Assembly: GCA_041649715.1 (NCBI GenBank)
Contig: JBAZMP010000003.1
Coordinates: forward strand, 36,155 to 100,154
DNA length: 64,000 bases
DNA from: Patescibacteria group bacterium
Lineage (GTDB): Bacteria; Patescibacteriota; Patescibacteriia; JAXHNJ01
Direction of reading: 5' to 3'
A program made the translations under genes and the position numbers. How positions within the stretch are numbered: the first letter of the stretch is position 1; every line of letters starts with the position of its first letter. The notes beneath the pieces were generated by a model, which worked only from the letters and a program-made list of their open reading frames with translations, was not told where the DNA came from and made no database searches. Positions 4,941 through 61,600 of the stretch are shown here, piece after piece.

Positions 4941-6413
4941 ATGAATATCCTTCCCTTAAGTTTCATTTTCCTCGGCGCCGGCCTTTTTTCCGTCGTCTAT
5001 TACAAATTAACGCCGGATAAAGAGATGCTCAAGGCCCGCCTGCCCAATAAGGTGGGGGCGGCCGGGATCATCCTTTGGCTGATAATCTGCGTGGCTTTTT
5101 ATTTTATCTTTAAGAACAGCCGCGGCTTTGAACGCACGGTCAGTATTTTTACCCTGCTCTTTGCCCTTCTTGTTTTTGAAACCTTTTTCCTGCTTTTGAT
5201 CCGCTGGTTTAAATCAAACCTTCTGGCCGTCTTAATCGCCCTGCTGGCCAGCGGGGTCTTATTCGCTTTTCATAATTATTATCCGACTTTCACTCTGCGC
5301 AACACCCTGATAATCCTGGGCACCCTGGGGGCCACTACCCTCTTGATAAAACTGAATTATCTGAAAACTTGGATTGTTTTCGGACTGGCTTTTCTCTGGA
5401 CCGGCTATGATATCTATACCACCCGCTATTTTTTGCCGAATGTCCTGGTCCCGGTCACCGAACCGCCAAAGACTTTCTTTTTCCCCTCCGTGATCACCGG
5501 CTCCGTCTCTTTGGGCAGCGGGGATTTCATTTTTCTGGTCCTTTTCACCCTTATTATTCTGAAAAAATTCGGAAAATTAGCCGCCTTAATCCTCGTTGCC
5601 GCCCAAACCGCGGGCTTGCTTTTTACCGGGTTATTTCTGGAAAGTGACTCCATCATCCCCTTCCTGGCGGTCATGACACCGATATTCCTGATTATATATT
5701 TAATTTTATTTATTAATTTAAAACCGAAAGAAAAAAATATGCTTAAGATCGGACACCGAGGGGCTTGCGGCTATGAACCTGAAAATACTCTTGCTTCTTT
5801 TGAGAAAGCCCTGGCTTTAAAAGTAGATATGGTAGAGTTTGATGTTTATGTCTGTAAAACCGGCGAAATTGTTATCATTCATGATGATACTTTAGAACGC
5901 ACAACCAATGGCCAGGGGTTGGTTTGGGAAAAAACATTTGGAGAATTGAGGGCCCTCGATGCCGGCCAAGGCGAAAAAATTCCCACTTTGCCGGAAATTC
6001 TGGATTTAATTGATAAAAAAGTAGCGGTAAATATTGAGTTAAAGGGGCCGGGTACCGCCAAACCGGTTGCCGACGTAATAAGAGAATATCTGACTAAGGG
6101 ATGGAAAAATGATCATTTTATCGTTTCCTCCTTTAATCTTGGAGAGTTAGATTCATTTTATCAACTTTTTCCGGATATAAAAATCGCCGCTTTGATAGAA
6201 AATGAACCAAAAGACTTAAAAAATTTTATCAAAGACAAAGGCTATTCCGCGATCAACCCCGGCTTAAAATTTGTCACCCGAGAATTTGTTAATCAGGTTC
6301 ACAAACTCGGTTTAAAAGTCTACGTCTGGACGGTTAATGAAAAAGAAGACCTTGAAAGAATGAAAAAATGGGGCGTTGACGGCGTCTTCTCTAATTATCC
6401 GGATAGAGTGTGA
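4941..6413 (+). CDS. Membrane protein with a C-terminal glycerophosphodiester phosphodiesterase (GDPD) domain.
   Basis: About 250 aa with multiple TM helices, then HRGACGYEPENTLASFEKA...EFDVYVCKTGEIVIIHDDTLERTTNG, the GDPD catalytic signature. Confidence 0.8.
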   Translation: MNILPLSFIFLGAGLFSVVYYKLTPDKEMLKARLPNKVGAAGIILWLIICVAFYFIFKNSRGFERTVSIFTLLFALLVFETFFLLLIRWFKSNLLAVLIALLASGVLFAFHNYYPTFTLRNTLIILGTLGATTLLIKLNYLKTWIVFGLAFLWTGYDIYTTRYFLPNVLVPVTEPPKTFFFPSVITGSVSLGSGDFIFLVLFTLIILKKFGKLAALILVAAQTAGLLFTGLFLESDSIIPFLAVMTPIFLIIYLILFINLKPKEKNMLKIGHRGACGYEPENTLASFEKALALKVDMVEFDVYVCKTGEIVIIHDDTLERTTNGQGLVWEKTFGELRALDAGQGEKIPTLPEILDLIDKKVAVNIELKGPGTAKPVADVIREYLTKGWKNDHFIVSSFNLGELDSFYQLFPDIKIAALIENEPKDLKNFIKDKGYSAINPGLKFVTREFVNQVHKLGLKVYVWTVNEKEDLERMKKWGVDGVFSNYPDRV

Positions 6414-7991: not shown

Positions 7992-8698
7992 TTACCGGTA
8001 CAGGCTCTTGATCGCACCCCAGGTGCTTTCATCCACGGCGGTAGGCTGGCAAAAAATCTTGGCCACGATGCAACAGGCATCGAATAGCTCGCCGGAGGCA
8101 GCGCCGCATAAGAACGGCGGGTAATCAGCCAGCATCACAGTCGGATAACCAGTCTGCCATACCAGCAAAGCGTTGGAAATAGCATACTGAATCTGGCAAT
8201 GGGTACAATTGTCAAAAGTACCCATGAGGAGGATATTGCTGGTGACGCCGACGGGCGAACCGGCGACATAAGTCACGCGCGCCGCTACGTTAAAGTAGGT
8301 AACCAGGCCGGTGTAGTCGGTTGCACCGCTCCCCCATGATCCGGTACCGGAAAGCCAGAATTGACCGCCGGTGTAGTTGGTGGCGTAATCGATCCAGCCG
8401 TTACCGTAAACGTCAAAGTAACGAGCAGTTTCCACCGCTCCTTCGCTGGCCATGCCCCAAACCTTCCATTGTCCTCCGAGGACTGCGCCATCCCACGACT
8501 GGGCGTTTTCCGTATTGCCCGGCTGACCCGGTCCTAAACCTGCGCACCAGGCTTCCGAAGCCCGGCCGCCGATCATCGTACCGTTGTTTGTGGTGTATAC
8601 CCCATCCTTGGGCGCGTTGTAGCAGACCTGGCCGAAAGCCGGCGCGGCGAAAGCGAGAATCAGCAGACTGACAAGAATCAAATTCAATTTCTTCACGG
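7992..8698 (-). CDS. Secreted Gly/Trp/Tyr/Cys-rich hypothetical protein.
   Basis: Likely GTG start (VKKLNLILVSLLILAFAAPAFGQ signal peptide) preceded by GGAGG at 7-nt spacing. The track ORF extends to 8921 through a TTG. Coding GC is markedly higher than in neighbouring genes. Confidence 0.55.
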
Positions 8699-10999: not shown

Positions 11000-11635
11000 T
11001 TAGCTCTTTTCTTTTTTCCCCTCAATCAATGGCACGAATTGAAAACCCGAAAATCTTTGTTCTTCAAAATCATCCTCACTTTTTTTGATCCTTAAAACCA
11101 TTTCTTGAATGTCCCGGCCGACCGGAATGACCAGTCTCCCGCCGATCGCGAGCTGATCGCCAAGCGCTTTCGGGATGCCGTTTATGGCGGCGGCCGCCAC
11201 CTGGATACAGTCAAAGGGGGCGAATTCCGACAGGCCGGCTGACCCATCGCCGCAGAACAATTCTATATTTTTGAATTTATATTTCTCCAGGTTTTTCTCG
11301 CCAAAAGTCTTTAACTGGGGTATCCTTTCCACGGCATAAACTTTTCCCTTTTCTCCCACCAAATAGGCGAGCAACCCCGTCGTCCAGGCCGAACCCGAAC
11401 CGACGTCCAAAACCTTCTCTCCTTCCTTTGGCTGCAATAGCTCCAACATAAAAGCGACGGTCAGGGGTTGACTATTGGTCTGACCGTAATTGATAGGCAG
11501 AGGGATATTTTCGGAAAAATCCTCCCTTAATTCCTCGGGCAGAAAATCCCGGCGGTGAATATTTAAAAAAGCCTCTATGATCTTAGGAGTTTTTAAATAA
11601 CCGTCGTCTATTAGCTTTTGGACTAATTGCTGCAT
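11000..11635 (-). CDS. pcm: Protein-L-isoaspartate O-methyltransferase.
   Basis: VLDVGSGSAWTTGLLA SAM-binding motif and overall PCMT architecture. Confidence 0.85.
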   Translation of the reverse strand: MQQLVQKLIDDGYLKTPKIIEAFLNIHRRDFLPEELREDFSENIPLPINYGQTNSQPLTVAFMLELLQPKEGEKVLDVGSGSAWTTGLLAYLVGEKGKVYAVERIPQLKTFGEKNLEKYKFKNIELFCGDGSAGLSEFAPFDCIQVAAAAINGIPKALGDQLAIGGRLVIPVGRDIQEMVLRIKKSEDDFEEQRFSGFQFVPLIEGKKEKS

Positions 11636-11941
11636 ATGATTGATGTATTTAATTTAACCTATTTTTGCTTTTTTGGCAAGGTAAGTGTTTTTAAAGGAAC
11701 AAGATGCAAGAGGCAAGTAACAAATATTTCAATAACCAATATTCAATTTTCAAACCGTTTGCCGACGAACAGTGTTTGGCTATTGGAATTTTGAATTTGG
11801 ATATTGTTTGTATCTTGTGTCACGGTAATTGTTTTTTATACAAACAAACTGGCCCAGAAAGAATAAATAAAACAACCATGGCAAAGAGCCTGAGAGGCTA
11901 AGCTAATAAGCCAAAACTTATTTCTGCTAAAAAATACCCCC

Positions 11942-32673: not shown

Positions 32674-33555
32674 TTATTCTCCTTGGTAATACTTTAAAAA
32701 TACTTCTTCCAAATTAGGCTCGTTAAAATGTACATCCGAGATATCGTACTGCCCCAGTATCTTTATAATCTGATTGACTTCTCCGGTCAGATAAAGCTGC
32801 AGATATTTTTCTTCCTGAAGCTTGATTTCCACCCCGGGCAGTTTAAAATCCTGCGGCCGATAAGCCTGCCGGAAAAAAATTTCCACGATCCTGGTCTTGG
32901 CCTGGGAAAGCTCTTCCACGCTTTTTAAGGCAATCAATTTCCCCTCCTTTAAGATCGCCACCCGGTCGCAGATTTTTTCCACCTCGGATAAAATATGGGA
33001 AGACATAAAAATTGTCGTTCCTTCTTTTATCATTTCTTGAATGATTTTGTTAAATTCAATCTGGATTAAAGGGTCTAGACCGCCCGTTGGCTCGTCTAAA
33101 ATCAAAAGTTTGGGTTTGCCGGATAAAGCCTGCAGCACCCCGATTTTTTGCCTGTTGCCCTTTGATAAATCGCTGACCCTTCTTTTCAAATCGATATCCA
33201 ATCTCTCCGTCAATTCTTTCACCCACTCTTTATTCAAGCCGCCATAAAAAGCAGCCAGGAATTTTGTCAGGTATTCGCCGGAATAACGGTCATATAATTT
33301 GACATCACCCGCCAGATACCCTACTTTCTTCATTATTTCTACCCGACTTTTTTGGCAGTCAAGACCAAAGACAGAAGCCCTTCCTTCCGTGGGACGGATA
33401 AAACCCATCAGCATTCTGATGGTGGTTGTTTTACCGGCGCCATTAGGCCCTAAAAAACCGAAGATCTCCCCTTCTTTTACCTCCAGGTTAAGGCCGTCAA
33501 CCGCCTTAATTTTGCCGCGATCAAAAGTCTTTGTTAAATTTTCGGTTTTAATCAT
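32674..33555 (-). CDS. ABC transporter ATP-binding protein.
   Basis: Walker A GPNGAGKTTT, signature LSKGNRQK, Walker B LILDEPTGGLD. Confidence 0.85.
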   Translation of the reverse strand: MIKTENLTKTFDRGKIKAVDGLNLEVKEGEIFGFLGPNGAGKTTTIRMLMGFIRPTEGRASVFGLDCQKSRVEIMKKVGYLAGDVKLYDRYSGEYLTKFLAAFYGGLNKEWVKELTERLDIDLKRRVSDLSKGNRQKIGVLQALSGKPKLLILDEPTGGLDPLIQIEFNKIIQEMIKEGTTIFMSSHILSEVEKICDRVAILKEGKLIALKSVEELSQAKTRIVEIFFRQAYRPQDFKLPGVEIKLQEEKYLQLYLTGEVNQIIKILGQYDISDVHFNEPNLEEVFLKYYQGE

Positions 33556-33560
33556 AATGT

Positions 33561-33608
33561 TGTTTAAATTCTAAATTCTAATCTCGAAATCCGAAACAAT
33601 TTCTAAGC
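33561..33608 (-). repeat. GGATTT-family repeat element. This copy is the left inverted repeat flanking gene 33780..34436.
   Basis: Its reverse complement, gcttagaaattgtttcggatttcgagattagaatttagaattta, matches the right flank 34640..34700 (tttcggattt...agaatttaggattta) at roughly 80% identity. Confidence 0.45.
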
Positions 33609-33779
33609 ACTAATATTCCAAACTCTAGTTACTATCACCCGTCACCCTGAATTTTTTTCAGTGTCCCTATCGTTACCGTTGTTTTAACCAACTTAATGGA
33701 AGTAATAAGAGATAAACAGTGTTTTCAAAAGGCGATTTGTCAGTTACATAGCTTAAAGTTAGTCTAAATTTATTAACTA

Positions 33780-34436
33780 TCAGGATTGTATAAAATCATT
33801 ATCTTTATATTCTAAATCGTTAAAATAATCACACGAATATCCCAGTTTTTTTTCTTCACCGCCCCAGCTATTACATGTGGCTATTTTATTACCCTCTCTA
33901 TCATAGTATATCTCACCCATGTCTGTAACCCAAGCACTTACCTGATATATTCTGCCGTATTTTTTAGTATTCCAAGAAACAATTTCATAATGGTTATCTT
34001 CCCATAAATTCCATGAATTAGAACTATATTGACTTTTTATATTATTTACAACAGTCATGTTAACCTTATCATCATCTGTGTTTGACGAGGGTTTTTGAGT
34101 GAAAAGATATAGTACGACACAAATTATGCCATAAACTAACCCGATAAATAATAACGTCAGCAGTAGTGATTTAACGAGATTTTTTTTATTAATAAACACA
34201 AAATAACAAGAAATGATGTATATTGCTATTAGGTATATTAGATTAAAAATAATGAAGATTGGCCAAGAATCTGGGACAGCACCCATAAACATATATTTAT
34301 AAGTTGACAGACGAGATAAAAAACTCGCTTCAATTAAATCAGTAAAAAACCAGACGGCAACAACTGTAATTATTATTAGTCCAAAAAATATTAATAGTTT
34401 CTTTTTTACTGGTTTTAAAAATTTTAAGATGAACAT
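33780..34436 (-). CDS. Hypothetical membrane protein, strongly AT-rich, flanked by inverted repeats.
   Basis: 3 N-terminal TM helices plus a Trp/Tyr/Cys-containing C-terminal domain. Coding GC is about 30% versus about 47% in neighbours. Confidence 0.5.
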   Translation of the reverse strand: MFILKFLKPVKKKLLIFFGLIIITVVAVWFFTDLIEASFLSRLSTYKYMFMGAVPDSWPIFIIFNLIYLIAIYIISCYFVFINKKNLVKSLLLTLLFIGLVYGIICVVLYLFTQKPSSNTDDDKVNMTVVNNIKSQYSSNSWNLWEDNHYEIVSWNTKKYGRIYQVSAWVTDMGEIYYDREGNKIATCNSWGGEEKKLGYSCDYFNDLEYKDNDFIQS

Positions 34437-34631
34437 ATTATTATAACTTAATTATAAGTCGGGTAACTAGAGGTCTCGTCATACGACGGGGTAAAGATTT
34501 GCACTCAAAAATTTAAGATTCCCGCCCGCCAAAGCGAGCTGATATTAATTAGAGTTGCAGAAGGGTTTTTTATACAAAAGAGTTGTAAGGGCAGGAGATG
34601 CTGAAACAAGTCCAGCATGGCGCATACGGAA

Positions 34632-34700
34632 ACGGGTTTCGGATTTGGAATTTCGGATTTAGGATTTGTTTAGAATTTAGGATTTAGGATTTCGGATTTT
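34632..34700 (+). repeat. GGATTT-family repeat element with internal tandem 9-11 nt units. This copy is the right inverted repeat of the 33780..34436 cassette.
   Basis: gaaacgggtttcggatttggaatttcggatttaggatttgtttagaatttaggatttaggatttcggatttt. Degenerate tandem units with irregular period. Confidence 0.45.
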
Positions 34701-34705
34701 ACAAT

Positions 34706-35704
34706 TTAATACCAGTCAATGTTGAGAGAAGCGGCGCCCATATCAACGTTCATCTCAATCTTTTTCGTGGTTTGATCATAATTCTCCGACTGGTAAGTAT
34801 TGTCGTCCAATTTCTCAAAATCGGAAAGATCCTTGCTGGATACGCCGGAGTCAATTTTAACTTTAGCGCCGACATCTTTGGGCAGTAAAATATCCGTGGA
34901 CGAAGCCCCGGTCTCAAGGGTAAAAGTAACATCTTCCACTAAATTGCCGAATTTGATCTCGGCGGAAGTGGCGCCCGAATTAATTTCAAGTTTTGAAAGC
35001 ATCACTTGAGAAAAATCCAAATTCATGTCCATCGCCCCCACGCCCAGGGTCAATTCCAAAGGCACTTTATCCGTCAGATTAACCGCCAGATCATTACGGC
35101 TTGAGCCGAACCAGTTTGACCAATGACGATTGGCTTTTGTGGTAAGGCTGTAAGTTAACTTCCCGCCCGTTGTCTCTTTTGTGGTGGTTAATTCCGTTAT
35201 ATTCGAGTCTAACTGCCCGGCAATGAAAAATTGGGAGCCGCCCTTGATGGTCAGATTGCCGGCGCCGGCGTCCAGAGTAACTTCACCGCTGGTTATCTCC
35301 GGAACTAAAGTTTCCGAAAACTCATAGGTCTTCACTTCCCGGTTGGTATCCGGCCAAAATATGGTGCTAAAGACAATGCCGCCCACGATCAGAATGACAA
35401 CTATCCCCCCGAAAATTGTTCCCATTATCCCCCGCCGAGTCAGCATGGATAAGGCAATAACGATAAGAATGACCGGCCAGAAACGCCAAATATTTTCCAT
35501 ATTGACGGAAAACCAGCCGAAATTATTGCCTAAAAAAGCGATGCCGGCAAAAAGCAGTATTAAGGCCCAGAAAAACCGGCCCATATCCCATCCCTTGCGT
35601 TTGTCATAATGGTGGTGATAATGAATTTCTTTTGGTTCGACTGACGGTTCTTCTTTTTTTACCTCGTTTTGTGTTTGATTTTGTTCTGTCTTTTGCTCTT
35701 CCAT
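34706..35704 (-). CDS. LiaF-like membrane protein (N-terminal DUF5668-like TM module plus C-terminal DUF4097/'toastrack' putative adhesin domain).
   Basis: His-rich N-terminus, LILLFAGIAFL...WPVILIVIALSMLTRR TM pair, then a beta-rich C-terminal domain. Confidence 0.55.
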   Translation of the reverse strand: MEEQKTEQNQTQNEVKKEEPSVEPKEIHYHHHYDKRKGWDMGRFFWALILLFAGIAFLGNNFGWFSVNMENIWRFWPVILIVIALSMLTRRGIMGTIFGGIVVILIVGGIVFSTIFWPDTNREVKTYEFSETLVPEITSGEVTLDAGAGNLTIKGGSQFFIAGQLDSNITELTTTKETTGGKLTYSLTTKANRHWSNWFGSSRNDLAVNLTDKVPLELTLGVGAMDMNLDFSQVMLSKLEINSGATSAEIKFGNLVEDVTFTLETGASSTDILLPKDVGAKVKIDSGVSSKDLSDFEKLDDNTYQSENYDQTTKKIEMNVDMGAASLNIDWY

Positions 35705-37221: not shown

Positions 37222-37379
37222 GTTGGTAATTTATAATTAATAATGTATAATTTATAATTTTTCGTGATTCGGAAGATATGCCGATAGACCATTGACGATA
37301 AACGTAACCATTAACGCCGCCTGAGAACGAAAGGATAATATCTTAATATCTTAATCGCTTAGTCGCCCAATATCAAGCG

Positions 37380-39435: not shown

Positions 39436-39494
39436 TATCGTATTCCGAGATTTAGATCCGTGATTTTAATCTCGGATCTTGATTAGTTAATCGC

Positions 39495-40487: not shown

Positions 40488-42509
40488 CTATCTGTCATAA
40501 TTCGCCAAAAAGTTTTCTCTATCGGTAATTTTGTTTATCTCACTAATCAACTGCTCGGTCAAAATCTGCGGTTCCAGTTTTCGCCATCTATTTTCGATAG
40601 CTGTTTTACGGAAAGTAATATTAATCAATGGCGTAATATCCATCAACTTTAATATCCATTTCAACCTTGTCGGTGTTTCATCGATATATTTAATATATTG
40701 GTCTCTTACAAGTTTTGAATAATATTCAACGAATTGTATAGAATACTCGATTGATCCACTTTCCCAAGTAATTCGGCTGATTTCATGTTTATCTTGAAGG
40801 GTCAATTTATTCTTGCCAATAAATTTGATGATTGTTTGTTTATCCTTTAGATTTACCCCGGGATTAAAAATCGTATATATGATCGGCAAAGTCAATTTTC
40901 CTTCCGCGATATCATTATGTGATGTGCTTTTCATTCCCTTGCTCAAGTCAGACATTTGTTCTGGAAAAATTAAATCGCCCAAATCGTTCCTGATCATCTG
41001 TACCAAACCGAATATTTTTGAGATATAAATGCAGGCGCTTTCTGTTTCTTTTTTATTATAAAACTGCGCCCCGACATTGGTTGATTTAACAGCCATGCGG
41101 CCTATCTCTTCATAAAAAGCCCCGCAAATGCCATAAATCCGGTTAAAGTATTTCTTTAAAGCCGATTCTAAATTATTTTCCTGGATAAACCCTAATAAAT
41201 CCTTATTATTTGTAAATGTTAAATCAATATCAATCGGCTGTCCTAAATACATTATATATTGGACATCATTCAGGGCTGAAAGTAACTGTTTAGATGGTTC
41301 TTCCTTATCTCTGGTTAATTCGTATAACAAAACTAATGAGAGACAATGACCTATTGCACCCAGCAAAAAAGCGTTTTTTCTGCTTCCAAATTTTTTATGG
41401 AGTGTTTTTTCTCCCTGGCGACTGTCAGAATCGTCAAAAACATCATCAATGGCGTAAGTATTCAGCCAATTATATATTTCGAGAATGGCGCCCATTTGAT
41501 AAACAAAACTTTCATGAAAATATTTTTGTGAGGCAATAATATGATGACTAACCAAATCATAAAGCTCAAAAAAGATCGTCGGCCGAGTTTTCTTCTTTCC
41601 TTGTTTTCTTCCTTGAATTTCTTGGGCCGGAATATTAAACCAGTAGGCTATCATGCCAGAAATATCCTTAATATTTTTCTTTCCCTCGAAATAACTTAAA
41701 TACTTGCTGATAGAATGATAAAGAAATGGAACCAAGCTATTAAAATCTTCCTCAATTATTTGTTTGACGATTTTCGCGCGTTCATATTCTAAATTACATA
41801 TTTGACGGTAAGTAAATGGAACATCGAATTTTGTTTTACTGTTTTCAAAAACTTTGGTATTCAAGGCATATTTATTATAATCCGCATATTCCCCGCTTTT
41901 CTCCAGAATTTTCGCCACCACTGATATATCCGCATAATGACGAAGCTCCTTATCAACAGAATAATTAATAATCCCCTCCCTGGCGTAAATGGATTTATAA
42001 TATTTATCCAAATACTCAATAATTTTATTCTCAAATTGATCTTTATTTTCACAATAAAGAACAGCCGTGTGCGTGAATTTATCATTGTTTTTGGCAAATT
42101 CCGAGACTTCTTTGCTGGTTGTCAATATGGCGCCGATACTAAAAGTCACCATCCACTGGGCTGAATAGTAATCAAGGTGTTCCAAATTTTCTACTAACAT
42201 TATTGTCGGTTTTTCCTTACCAATCGCATAGCCGCATTCCCATGTACTATCCGTTCCGGCCGCTCCATTATTCTCCGTGTCATACATTTTCATGTAAGCA
42301 AGTATGGCATTACATTTATTTATTTCGCCTAAATCTTTTGTCGCAATTCTAATGGGAATTTTTCTCTGATCGGAGTAGTCTTCATCGATCAAGGCGGGCT
42401 GAAACAAATCTAACTTTTTATTAAAGAATGGCGAATATTCATCTTTAAAATTTTGTCTCCATAACTTTATTCCTGACGCTAAGTATATTTTATATCTTGT
42501 TACTGGCAT
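40488..42509 (-). CDS. Fusion protein: N-terminal nucleoside 2-deoxyribosyltransferase-like (NDT/SLOG-fold) domain plus C-terminal trans-polyprenyl diphosphate synthase-like domain.
   Basis: N-terminus: KIYLASG...CNAILAYM...NGAAGTDSTWECGYAIGKEKPTIML (NDT signature DxGTxxExGyAxaxgKP). C-terminus: GKKKTRPTIF (GKxxRP), first Asp-rich motif AIDDVFDDSDSRQGEKTLHKKFG (cf. IspB LLHDDVVDESDMRRGKATANAAFG), second motif region MIRNDLGDL...HNDIAEGKLTLPIIY (SARM degenerated to NDxxD, then GKxTLP). The gene is markedly AT-rich. Confidence 0.6.
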   Translation of the reverse strand: MPVTRYKIYLASGIKLWRQNFKDEYSPFFNKKLDLFQPALIDEDYSDQRKIPIRIATKDLGEINKCNAILAYMKMYDTENNGAAGTDSTWECGYAIGKEKPTIMLVENLEHLDYYSAQWMVTFSIGAILTTSKEVSEFAKNNDKFTHTAVLYCENKDQFENKIIEYLDKYYKSIYAREGIINYSVDKELRHYADISVVAKILEKSGEYADYNKYALNTKVFENSKTKFDVPFTYRQICNLEYERAKIVKQIIEEDFNSLVPFLYHSISKYLSYFEGKKNIKDISGMIAYWFNIPAQEIQGRKQGKKKTRPTIFFELYDLVSHHIIASQKYFHESFVYQMGAILEIYNWLNTYAIDDVFDDSDSRQGEKTLHKKFGSRKNAFLLGAIGHCLSLVLLYELTRDKEEPSKQLLSALNDVQYIMYLGQPIDIDLTFTNNKDLLGFIQENNLESALKKYFNRIYGICGAFYEEIGRMAVKSTNVGAQFYNKKETESACIYISKIFGLVQMIRNDLGDLIFPEQMSDLSKGMKSTSHNDIAEGKLTLPIIYTIFNPGVNLKDKQTIIKFIGKNKLTLQDKHEISRITWESGSIEYSIQFVEYYSKLVRDQYIKYIDETPTRLKWILKLMDITPLINITFRKTAIENRWRKLEPQILTEQLISEINKITDRENFLANYDR

Positions 42510-43086: not shown

Positions 43087-43644
43087 CTAACAGTCAAGGA
43101 CTTCCTCACGAACAGCCAAAAATTTGTTTTCTCCCGGTAACTTAACATCAAGCCACCAGCGCATCAAGTTCACTTTGCCGAACGGATCGGCGTCGAGTAA
43201 CGCAATAAAGTCATCCCGGACTGAACCACACAGAGCTATAACCGATTCTTCCTTATGTTCTTCAGGGTATTCCCTGACAAAAGTTTCGGCCTGGGCTCGG
43301 TCAGGACAACTTAGATGTCTGCGCTTGAATATTTTAAGCACTTCTCTGGGAGTAATTTCGGTGCTTACCGGGACTAATTCAAAAATCACTTTTTTCTTGC
43401 CTTTGCCCTTAATGGGAAAATCCTCTATCGTCGTTGGATTTCTGGATTTAGTCTGATTGCTTCCTTCAATCGATTGCCAACGCGGATCGTCGGAGTTTAC
43501 CTCGCAAACGAAACGCGGTTTGAAGACGAATAACTGAAGAAGTTCAATCCACTCGTCCAAACTACGCGATCCCTCTTGGACCATTTTGAGAGCCGAGGCT
43601 AGCAACTTGCCAGCTCGTTCCCAGGAATTCTTGCTGCTTCCCAC
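43087..43644 (-). CDS. Hypothetical protein (185 aa).
   Basis: GTG start with AGGAGG at 7-nt spacing. No domain recognised. Confidence 0.45.
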   Translation of the reverse strand: MGSSKNSWERAGKLLASALKMVQEGSRSLDEWIELLQLFVFKPRFVCEVNSDDPRWQSIEGSNQTKSRNPTTIEDFPIKGKGKKKVIFELVPVSTEITPREVLKIFKRRHLSCPDRAQAETFVREYPEEHKEESVIALCGSVRDDFIALLDADPFGKVNLMRWWLDVKLPGENKFLAVREEVLDC

Positions 43645-43942
43645 AGCTTTTCCTCCTGTCTAAGGCTTTCGCTACTAAACCGGACATGACGAATGACCGG
43701 CACTCCCATACCTTGGGAGATTTCGCGGCTTTGGCTTTGGTAGCCGCAGCGCCAACACCACTCCACTCAATCCTTACTAAAAGAGCCCGTAAAGAAGTGA
43801 GGTAGGCACTGCAGCCAAACTTGCCGATGAATTTTAAAAGAGTTTATTATATTCTCACGGATCCGCAATTCTGTCAATTTTAGCTTGTGGATAAATTTTT
43901 TGGTTATCTAACGTATAAATTATTAAATAGTCCAAGCCAGTT

Positions 43943-43972
43943 TCGGATTTTGAGTTTAGAATTTTTTATTTA
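43943..43972 (+). repeat. Third copy of the GGATTT-family element (gtttcggattttgagtttagaattttttattta), overlapping the 3' end of gene 43966..44226.
   Basis: Matches reverse-complemented 33571..33600 and 34640..34680 (tttcggattt-[ct]gag-[at]ttagaattt). Confidence 0.35.
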
Positions 43973-47477: not shown

Positions 47478-47598
47478 GATGTTTTTAATTAAAATATTAA
47501 ATATATAAACTGTAAAGCGACGGCCTGTTTTGAATTTTGGATTTTAAGCATTTGATTTTGTTTTGTGCTTTGGATTTTGGAATTAGGGTTTGAACGAG

Positions 47599-61483: not shown

Positions 61484-61600
61484 TGTTTAGATCGGATTAA
61501 GAATCCGATCTACTCGAACACGTACAAAATTGACTTGGTATTGCGTGAAGACGGGATTCAGAATCCCGCCAGCAGGGCAGGTCGGATTCTGAATCCGACC
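61484..61600 (-). repeat. Cluster of three related hairpins (gatcggatt-aagaa-tccgatc; gggattc-agaa-tcccgcc; ggtcggattc-tgaa-tccgacc) 3' of gene 61662..62996, members of the GGATT repeat family.
   Basis: Three perfect or near-perfect inverted repeats within 120 nt sharing a cggattc/gaatccg core. A T-rich tract lies at 61612..61650. Confidence 0.4.

Follow-up and report, generated by a model that had tools for sequence, protein, structure and literature searches.

Two halves of a palindromic heptamer repeat bracket a low-GC orphan gene at a variable operon junction in a Patescibacteria genome

Background

The genomes of Patescibacteria (candidate phyla radiation, CPR) are small and rich in orphan genes, and gene gain in these bacteria is poorly understood. 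How an orphan gene comes to stand between inverted copies of one repeat is the question raised by a 64,000-nucleotide (nt) stretch of such a genome, positions 36,155 to 100,154 of contig JBAZMP010000003.1 in assembly GCA_041649715.1. This stretch (hereafter the window) is a portion of the 235-kb ENA ERZ27247363 contig k141_1414341, from a Patescibacteria metagenome-assembled genome (MAG). Between two of its operons lies an AT-rich gene (33780..34436, GC 0.291) with non-coding flanks of 224 and 269 nt, and each flank ends in an array of the same heptameric repeat. A first interpretation, made from the letters alone and called here the sequence-only reading, regarded the repeat as similar to miniature inverted-repeat transposable elements (MITEs) or repetitive extragenic palindromes (REPs), and supposed that it had delivered or framed the gene as cargo.

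The two arrays correspond to the two halves of a ~135-nt palindromic intergenic repeat. Our favoured interpretation, which we hold with about even confidence, is that a single copy of this repeat at the junction of a PspC/LiaF cluster and an ABC transporter operon was split at its centre by incoming foreign low-GC DNA. The repeat frames the orphan gene, and in this interpretation it did not carry the gene there. The locus offers a concrete variable slot, in which three close relatives show three states at one junction, and the slot is marked by a palindromic repeat that appears to be uncatalogued and is conserved across many uncultivated lineages, with copies even inside rRNA genes.

Results

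Two repeat halves around the orphan gene

The profile hidden Markov model (HMM) of the repeat family was built from 34 unrelated metagenome copies only. It aligns the array on the ABC side of the gene (33562..33627, + strand; AAATTCT AAATTCT AATCTCG AAATCCG AAAC ...) with model positions 4-69 (nhmmer E 2.2e-10, 36.3 bits) and the array on the LiaF side (34629..34702, + strand; ...GGATTT GTTT AGAATTT AGGATTT AGGATTT CGGATTT) with positions 68-144 (E 8e-14, 47.5 bits). Because a profile made from metagenome copies alone places the two arrays on complementary parts of the model and on the same strand, we take them to be the left and right halves of one copy, separated by 1001 nt at the palindrome centre. 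The best inverted arm pair (I1) joins 33566-33597 with 34636-34667 over 32 nt with 81% complementarity, so that the inverted same-family repeats at the flank ends described in the sequence-only reading are borne out by pairing and by independent profile matches. The right array (34637-34699, + strand) is (TTTNGRA)n with a period of 7 and 9.4 copies in Tandem Repeats Finder (TRF), which also reports 14, 25 and 32 as multiples; its earlier description as a degenerate tandem is correct and the unit of 9-11 nt is not. The left array (33562-33596) is the reverse complement of a heptamer array of the right type.

The right half begins with an apex remnant, GAAACGGGTTTC, in which GAAAC-GG-GTTTC corresponds to the AAACCGGTTT apex of intact copies in a related genome (L003, below), and it terminates 3 nt from the stop codon of a gene for a LiaF-like protein. 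The left half, on the minus strand, lies directly upstream of the start codon (33555) of an ABC ATPase gene and contains, on that strand, two TAGAAT hexamers (33573..33568 and 33580..33575). In the window, L003 and the second close relative, L004, conservation extends over about 60 nt in front of the ABC ATG, with TTAGAATTTAGAAWTT as the core.

The insert between the halves contains the gene and two non-coding spacers, both read on the minus strand. The spacer between the orphan stop and the left half (33628..33779) has a small hairpin at ~33640-33668, CACTGAAAAAAATTCAGGGTG (minus strand), of the CTGAA...TTCAG type; this spacer has no counterpart in L004, and L003 has merely a hairpin of similar style. 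The spacer between the right half and the orphan start (34437..34628) has a small hairpin at ~34597-34620, GCTGAAACAAGTCCAGC, and a G+C-rich stem followed by a T-rich run at ~34490-34535. TATAAT hexamers at 34440-34456, just upstream of the orphan ATG, may provide the gene with a promoter of its own. A scan for sigma-70 promoters and intrinsic terminators called nothing at the arms and found no full -35/-10 site on the minus strand of 34437..34628. Other small hairpin repeats ('CTGAAACAAGT..CAG', 'CCTGAGC..GAAGG', 'GTCATTCCGGGCTTGACCCGGAATCC') recur and nest inside copies of the heptamer element; they are found at window 34597-34620 and 33640-33668, at L003:11040-11150, and in L247, L252, L255, L341 and L349.

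As to whether the motif might be simply a frequent AT-rich word, the possibility named in the sequence-only reading as one that would refute it, the answer depends on what is counted. The 9-mer TTCGGATTT, with one mismatch allowed, is not enriched as a word in the window (47 occurrences against 47.6 expected). The repeat signal is one of phased arrays: the window has 6 of them, at 5 sites and all intergenic, where 1.07 (at most 3) are expected from Markov shuffles. Their positional association with variable genes is loose, because the repeat occurs both at variable junctions and at junctions whose gene content is fixed. The minimum-energy fold of a 1181-nt transcript pairs the two arms, trivially, because they are complementary; nothing else supports long-range RNA pairing, and we rejected it.

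The repeat family

To collect copies, a 25-nt signature, GTTTAGAATTTNRGATTTAGKRYTT, was scanned over metagenome contigs, and at least 120 contigs matched against ~0.1 chance matches by our own estimate; more than 100 metagenome contigs have the element. The element is an imperfect palindrome of ~135 nt, with phased AAAnnCn heptamers in its left half and nGnnTTT heptamers in its right half. The consensus of the left part is AAATYCT AAATTCT AATATCT AAATCCT AAAC AAATTCAAA..., which is followed by a variable centre and then by ...TTTGAATTT GTTT AGAATTT AGGATTT AGTGCTT AGGATTT. The left half is equally conserved although it was absent from the search pattern. Across copies the order of the heptamers is conserved, and so are the mismatches between the arms.

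In a census of 339 other loci (2.39 Mb) we counted 97 full copies, 38 right-only, 14 left-only and 31 other partial copies. The length of 86 full copies ranges from 94 to 264 nt with a median of 137 nt. Sixty of 63 clearly oriented copies lie outside long open reading frames (ORFs), and copies lie in either orientation to the genes beside them (<E< 22, >E> 9), the antisense arrangement of the window being the commoner. The centre is the variable part: half of the full copies measured (43/86) have inserts at model position 74, 793 nt in total, and in L247, L250 and L281 the centre is interrupted for 85-340 nt by other small repeats. No gene-sized insert was found in the 97 full and 52 half copies of the census.

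The outer 32 nt of the arms mirror each other (80.4% standard pairs, against 54% when slid by one column), and the palindrome is asymmetric, its mismatched columns being conserved. A structured RNA was considered as an explanation and rejected: RNAalifold gave 0 pairs, and the mirror helix, several columns of which are mismatched in most copies, was 80.4% paired against 80.9% in shuffled alignments and showed no covariation beyond theirs. TAA or TAG recurs every 7 nt in both halves and closes all three reading frames, and all three frames contain stops in 53-59% of the arms, compared with 23% after shuffling.

Copies can be dense. L003 has three full copies in 17.7 kb (8421-8554 with E 7e-30, 5378-5514 and 1722-1870), which occupy three spacers between co-directional genes and whose closely spaced inverted arrays fold into long hairpins with AAACCGGTTT at the apex; their right arms are near-identical to one another and to the right array of the window (GTTTAGAATTTAGGATTTAG...). 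L349 and L350 have three copies each in ~10 kb, and densities in L349, L350 and L210 reach 3-4 per 7-10 kb. The 64-kb window has one split copy and two weak partial copies. One of these (11719..11809, + strand; nhmmer E 1.3e-4 to 1.9e-4, array detector match 11782-11802) is a degenerate copy in a divergent intergenic region; the other (47495..47593, + strand; E 1.7e-4), likewise degenerate, lies between genes of 112 and 102 amino acids (aa), and the orthologous spacer of L003 holds a complete copy (1722-1870). A different heptamer array, (TAATTTA)n with 4.9 copies, stands directly upstream of the PspC start codon at window 37227..37260, and the orthologous spacer of L003 is filled by a complete element copy.

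Judged by MAG labels, the element sequence appears to be conserved in several candidate phyla. When the pattern is relaxed to (AAATYCN)x4, many plain heptamer arrays are also picked up, among them arrays of cyanobacteria, Acidobacteria and Verrucomicrobia; intergenic heptameric repeats of this kind have been documented before (PMC4692102, PMC4679880). About one quarter of the signature matches listed are long degenerate (TTTAGGG)n arrays (L235, L239, L260, L323, L329, L340 and others), which were set aside; they are probably eukaryotic telomeric or subtelomeric DNA with a chance resemblance to the signature. Fourteen contigs classed as viral in IMG/VR carry copies, some of them 3-4 (L210, L219, L151, L173, L192 and others), and these contigs could be vehicles for spread or misclassified CPR DNA.

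Rfam has no family for the element when the window, the local region and intact copies are searched, giving only sub-threshold matches to a generic hairpin (a plant miRNA precursor); elsewhere in the window it identifies one tRNA and one L10 leader. The exact repeat strings returned only unrelated papers from the searchable literature and no description of the element, which is no proof of its being undescribed. The family thus appears to be uncatalogued, and its kind is known: a small palindromic intergenic repeat combined with heptameric periodicity.

Insertional behaviour

Several copies occupy sites at which an insertion can be recognised. In L029 (73-217) a copy adds an insertion of 173 nt to a helix loop that is 5 nt long in the bacterial 16S model (~model position 210), and another, in L347 (~1470-1625), is inside a 23S rRNA gene, the model match of which (434-1560) spans the copy. 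L003 carries a full copy at the ABC2-PspC junction, which in L353 is a spacer of 9 nt and in the window and L004 is occupied by other sequence. In L237 (2410-2510; also in L249) a copy fills the groES-groEL spacer, where the groES frame enters the left half of the element and terminates at one of its TAA triplets. The intergenic location, the two orientations, the rRNA-gene insertions and the presence or absence at the ABC2-PspC junction together point to an insertional, MITE-like family.

The element is short and non-coding, has terminal inverted repeats and is present or absent at orthologous sites, as is expected of a MITE, and the label given in the sequence-only reading is reasonable for a multi-copy family that is polymorphic in close relatives and found in rRNA genes. 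The REP half of the label is less apt, an element of ~135 nt that is A+T-rich and built of heptamers being different from a G+C-rich hairpin of 20-40 nt with a conserved 5' tetranucleotide and an associated RAYT transposase, as in REPs and REPINs; no RAYT gene is annotated in the window, and none was looked for outside it. In keeping with the earlier statement that no transposase is present, no transposase or integrase Pfam match is recorded for the called genes between ~3 and 64 kb of the window. The target-site duplication that the same reading would have looked for could not be established: inspection of the flanks of aligned copies showed no consistent one, and the element ends are ambiguous for such a search because the arms themselves are tandem repeats. 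AAAC/GTTT recurs at insert borders, yet it belongs to every arm.

The locus does not behave as a mobile insertion cassette or cargo transposon, in which ends and cargo move as a unit, nor does it resemble an integron cassette, since the window has no integrase or recombinase Pfam match and the insert is a single gene and not an array. Period 7 and intergenic location agree with the long simple sequence repeats (LSSR) and short tandemly repeated repetitive sequences (STRR) of heptameric type; the element is not a plain simple sequence repeat because its units differ in a conserved order and its architecture is fixed.

The variable slot in related genomes

Relatives were found as syntenic contigs by means of homologues of the LiaF-like protein. 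Two close ones are L003 (GCA_043812155.1) and L004 (a Logan assembly), with 80-92% identity for most orthologues and only 61% for the LiaF-like protein. The slot of L004 holds a 205-aa orphan gene that is unrelated to the window gene (BLASTP E 17) and lies between the same two halves, 11007-11071 (model 9-73) and 11764-11828 (model 70-143), in the same left...right arrangement and with much shorter spacers than in the window. The 205-aa protein is a singleton, with no relatives in the protein database. In L003 the slot has no gene; it consists of 176 nt with two small hairpins and the ABC-side half only. With respect to gene orientation, the insert of the window follows the apex remnant, and that of L004 precedes it. 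Only 2 nt separate the LiaF-like and ABC genes in the more distant L005-L007, and the two genes of L354 overlap. An arm homologous to the right half follows the LiaF stop in L004 and L353. The L353 contig stops 29 nt past that stop codon, inside an AAATTCC-type array (L353:2719-2747), which looks like an assembly break at the repeat.

Three close relatives with three states agree with the earlier view of the gene as a lineage-specific insert in a variable slot. The presence or absence expected for the whole segment 33560..34705 was found for the gene; the segment does not come and go as a block. Of the two verbs in the sequence-only reading, framing is supported, as the two halves bracket 33780..34436, and delivery is not, as the halves persist around an unrelated gene in L004 and one half persists with no gene in L003. 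Since the ends persist with other cargo or none, ends and cargo do not come and go as a unit.

The ABC ATPase next to the slot has its own pattern of similarity (alleles: window 32674..33555, L003:11215-12096, L004:11843-12721, L005:10978-11856). The window and L004 proteins are 88% identical, and that of L003 is 69% identical to both and 77% identical to that of the more distant L005. This discordance with the flanking genes argues for a recombination boundary at the slot and suggests, from sequence comparison, that the ABC allele may be a recombinational replacement ending there.

The orphan gene and its neighbours

All genes surrounding the slot are on the minus strand. The upstream border is the gene for the LiaF-like (toast-rack) membrane protein (34706..35704, minus strand; Pfam LiaI-LiaF-like_TM1, Toast_rack_N and LiaF-TM), the final gene of a PspC/LiaF-like cluster, for which synteny is kept in L003-L007, L353 and L354. 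The downstream border is the ABC transporter ATPase gene (32674..33555, minus strand; Pfam ABC_tran), which opens an ABC-2 transporter operon of ATPases and ABC-2 permeases.

The orphan gene (33780..34436, minus strand, from the ORF list) encodes a membrane protein of 218 aa in which transmembrane helices at the N-terminus are predicted to be followed by a small C-terminal beta domain rich in Cys, Trp and Tyr; the AF2 single-sequence model has helices followed by strands, at low confidence (pLDDT 58). Among 5.8 billion proteins it matches itself only, and there is no Pfam match above the cut-off and no PHROG match. An exhaustive search gave two distant relatives of residues 110-217, P0022 (52%) and P0023 (41%), and tblastn found a full-length homologue on L128 (GC 31%) with 42% identity over residues 3-215; the heptamer repeat was not found around this homologue. 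The protein is real. The GC content at third codon positions (GC3) is 0.251, against GC 0.42-0.50 and GC3 0.45-0.59 in the neighbours, and the contigs bearing its relatives are of 31-33% GC. From a GC3 of 0.25 compared with ~0.5 nearby and from the low-GC contigs of its relatives, we infer that the gene is foreign and came from a lower-GC relative.

P0023 is part of a row of ~8 small genes without Pfam match in a 33%-GC genome (L129:5364-9546; also L130 and L131). The spacers of this row are conserved, 117-184 nt long, and read ..AAAAAGTTCTGAAAGTACCCCATAGAGGACCCCA.., a terminator-like hairpin, then TGATATACT; the row resembles repeated expression cassettes.

Discussion

A proposed split of a resident copy at its centre

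In the reading that we favour, a resident copy of the element would have been in place first at the operon boundary, and its palindrome centre, the tip of a hairpin or cruciform, would have been a preferred point of entry for DNA. A gene from a lower-GC relative would have landed there as part of 1001 nt that include the orphan gene, small hairpins and promoter-like hexamers. Lineages may later have exchanged or replaced the cargo of the slot, probably through recombination that extended into the conserved genes on either side, and both halves would have survived because each adjoins a gene end. The -10-like TAGAAT hexamers in the ABC-side half and the frame-closing arms are suggestive of features that may aid retention.

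Several observations weigh against this reading. No relative with an intact, unsplit element at the LiaF-ABC junction was found, so that the order of events, with the element first, is inferred. Half copies are common (52 against 97 full ones), and any solo arm will give a profile alignment that stops near the centre, where conservation is poor; for these two reasons the matching breakpoints count for less than they seem to. The apex remnant on opposite sides in the window and L004 calls for two events or a rearrangement, and hints at separate events near the centre, the arms being too repetitive for proof. The analysis revealed neither a mechanism of insertion nor a recombinase nor a clear target duplication, and the host range rests on MAG labels, some of which may belong to mis-binned contigs.

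Alternative explanations

The alternative that survives best, and that we still consider unlikely, is that two independent partial copies, one in each spacer, have each decayed to one arm, the inverted layout being a coincidence or an orientation preference. Partial copies are frequent in the census, other solo partials exist in the window itself (11719-11809 and 47495-47593), arms directly abut stop codons at several other junctions, and in the wider sample converging arm pairs at gene-sized spacing are no commoner than diverging ones. On the other side, both arms reach the model centre and the right arm keeps the apex with a few bases of the opposite arm, the left...right arrangement recurs in L004 with its shorter spacers, and a profile search of the 150-190 nt beside each arm detected nothing of the missing halves.

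It is improbable, in our judgement, that the arms are instead host regulatory modules, namely an AAATCCN array after the stop codon and an NGGATTT/TAGAAT array before the start codon selected as 3' and 5' signals, which might act through three-frame stops, in termination or stability, or as a -10 box or unstructured leader, and would bracket any entering gene automatically. The conserved ~60 nt with the TTAGAATTTAGAAWTT core before the ABC ATG in three genomes, the arms that begin only a few nt from stop codons, the element copy of L237 that includes the groES stop codon and the excess of three-frame stops over shuffled arms are all in its favour, as is the adjacency of TAACTGA heptamers to start codons, where they were proposed as regulator sites (PMC4679880). 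However, the relatives are close enough for part of the conservation to be shared ancestry, the promoter and terminator scan calls nothing at the arms, copies occur inside rRNA genes and in both orientations relative to genes, and close relatives differ in whether an orthologous junction has a copy. A regulatory role is compatible with the split of a resident copy, as a secondary, domesticated role.

Of these three rivals, the transposition of ends and gene as a unit, that is delivery, fits least well, and we think it improbable to a slightly higher degree. Here the halves would be terminal inverted repeats of a cargo-carrying non-autonomous transposon, moved by a transposase encoded elsewhere; inverted ends of a mobile-looking family do flank a foreign low-GC gene without a transposase, and the junction of the more distant relatives, with its flanking genes 2 nt apart, could be read as the 'empty' site. 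Against it, the ends persist with other cargo in L004 and one end without cargo in L003, no further gene-sized cargo is found among ~150 copies, both cargo genes are singletons in the protein database, and the only full-length homologue (L128) lacks surrounding repeats; nor was there a recognisable target-site duplication, or a transposase in the window. Very unlikely indeed is a gene-capture site at the element centre, at which a recombinase of hairpins or cruciforms would swap single-gene cassettes at many intergenic copies in the manner of integron attC/attI sites, its footprint being the unrelated orphan genes that two close relatives have at the centre of one and the same copy, together with AAAC/GTTT at both insert borders.

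Comparison with known systems

The Correia elements of Neisseria are MITEs of ~100-160 nt, non-coding, imperfectly palindromic, high-copy, intergenic and polymorphic, with promoter-like hexamers near their ends. The family described here is similar in size, intergenic location (often between co-directional genes, where it would be co-transcribed), polymorphism and end hexamers; unlike Correia elements it has no recognisable target-site duplication or known cognate transposase, its arms are phased 7-nt units in conserved order, and copies are found in rRNA helices. Mobile insertion cassettes such as the IS231-MIC231 of Bacillus cereus have inverted ends around a passenger gene and no internal transposase, as the window slot does, but across relatives the slot keeps its ends with different cargo or with none, and no second copy of the unit, target-site duplication or cognate insertion sequence (IS) was identified.

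The minimal mobile elements of Neisseria are cassettes exchanged between conserved flanking genes by homologous recombination. The present locus is like them in that one slot between conserved genes holds unrelated genes or nothing across related genomes, and in that the ABC allele discordance suggests recombination tracts reaching into the flanks; it differs in that the cassettes lie inside a split palindromic repeat, and there is no evidence of natural transformation or donor alleles. Extra insertions in rRNA are also known, as intervening sequences and as CPR rRNA insertions, and the copies at the 16S helix tip in L029 and within the 23S rRNA of L347 form hairpin-like insertions of that sort, although they concern loci other than the window.

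Heptameric simple-sequence repeats have been described with the units GGGAATC in Xanthomonas and GGGGAYT in Nostoc (PMC4692102) and TAACTGA in Beggiatoaceae, Cyanobacteria and Bacteroidetes (PMC4679880, which also cites the cyanobacterial STRR). They share with our element the tandem 7-nt units, the intergenic location, often by start or stop codons, the occasional inverted pairs and the lack of an established function. In the published repeats one motif is iterated almost perfectly and its copy number varies, whereas the window element is a composite of fixed length, made of ordered heptamers in two distinct halves with a variable centre.

As it stands, the locus represents a well-documented new repeat family together with an ordinary indel, and no new mechanism. 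Should DNA indeed enter preferentially at the centre of the repeat, the family could be used to trace recently acquired genes, and it would be a new example of small repeats that shape genome plasticity. If the gene-capture reading were true, the element family would supply some of the many orphan genes of Patescibacteria genomes.

Minor observations

The sequence-only reading had listed related repeats at three further sites of the window. The supposed third copy at 43943..43972 amounts to three degenerate units (profile E 0.6-1.4 at 43940-43969, not significant) and is not accepted as a copy. The hairpins at 61484..61600 and 39440..39490 exist, and their kinship to the repeat is not supported, as neither gives a profile match; at 61484..61600 three short perfect hairpins, GGATT(C)-N2-3-(G)AATCC, stand in a row downstream of a canonical terminator-like hairpin and form a small-hairpin repeat of their own.

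Two other places in the window differ in gene content from the close relatives. A 673-aa gene at 40488..42509 (minus strand; GC 0.34, GC3 0.35), which has a nucleoside deoxyribosyltransferase-like N-terminus joined to a polyprenyl synthetase, is missing at the syntenic position in L003 and L004 and is probably a second insertion. A 185-aa gene at 43087..43644, between the HHH_8 and Zincin_1 genes, is specific to the window; at the same place L004 has no gene and L003 has a histone-deacetylase gene.

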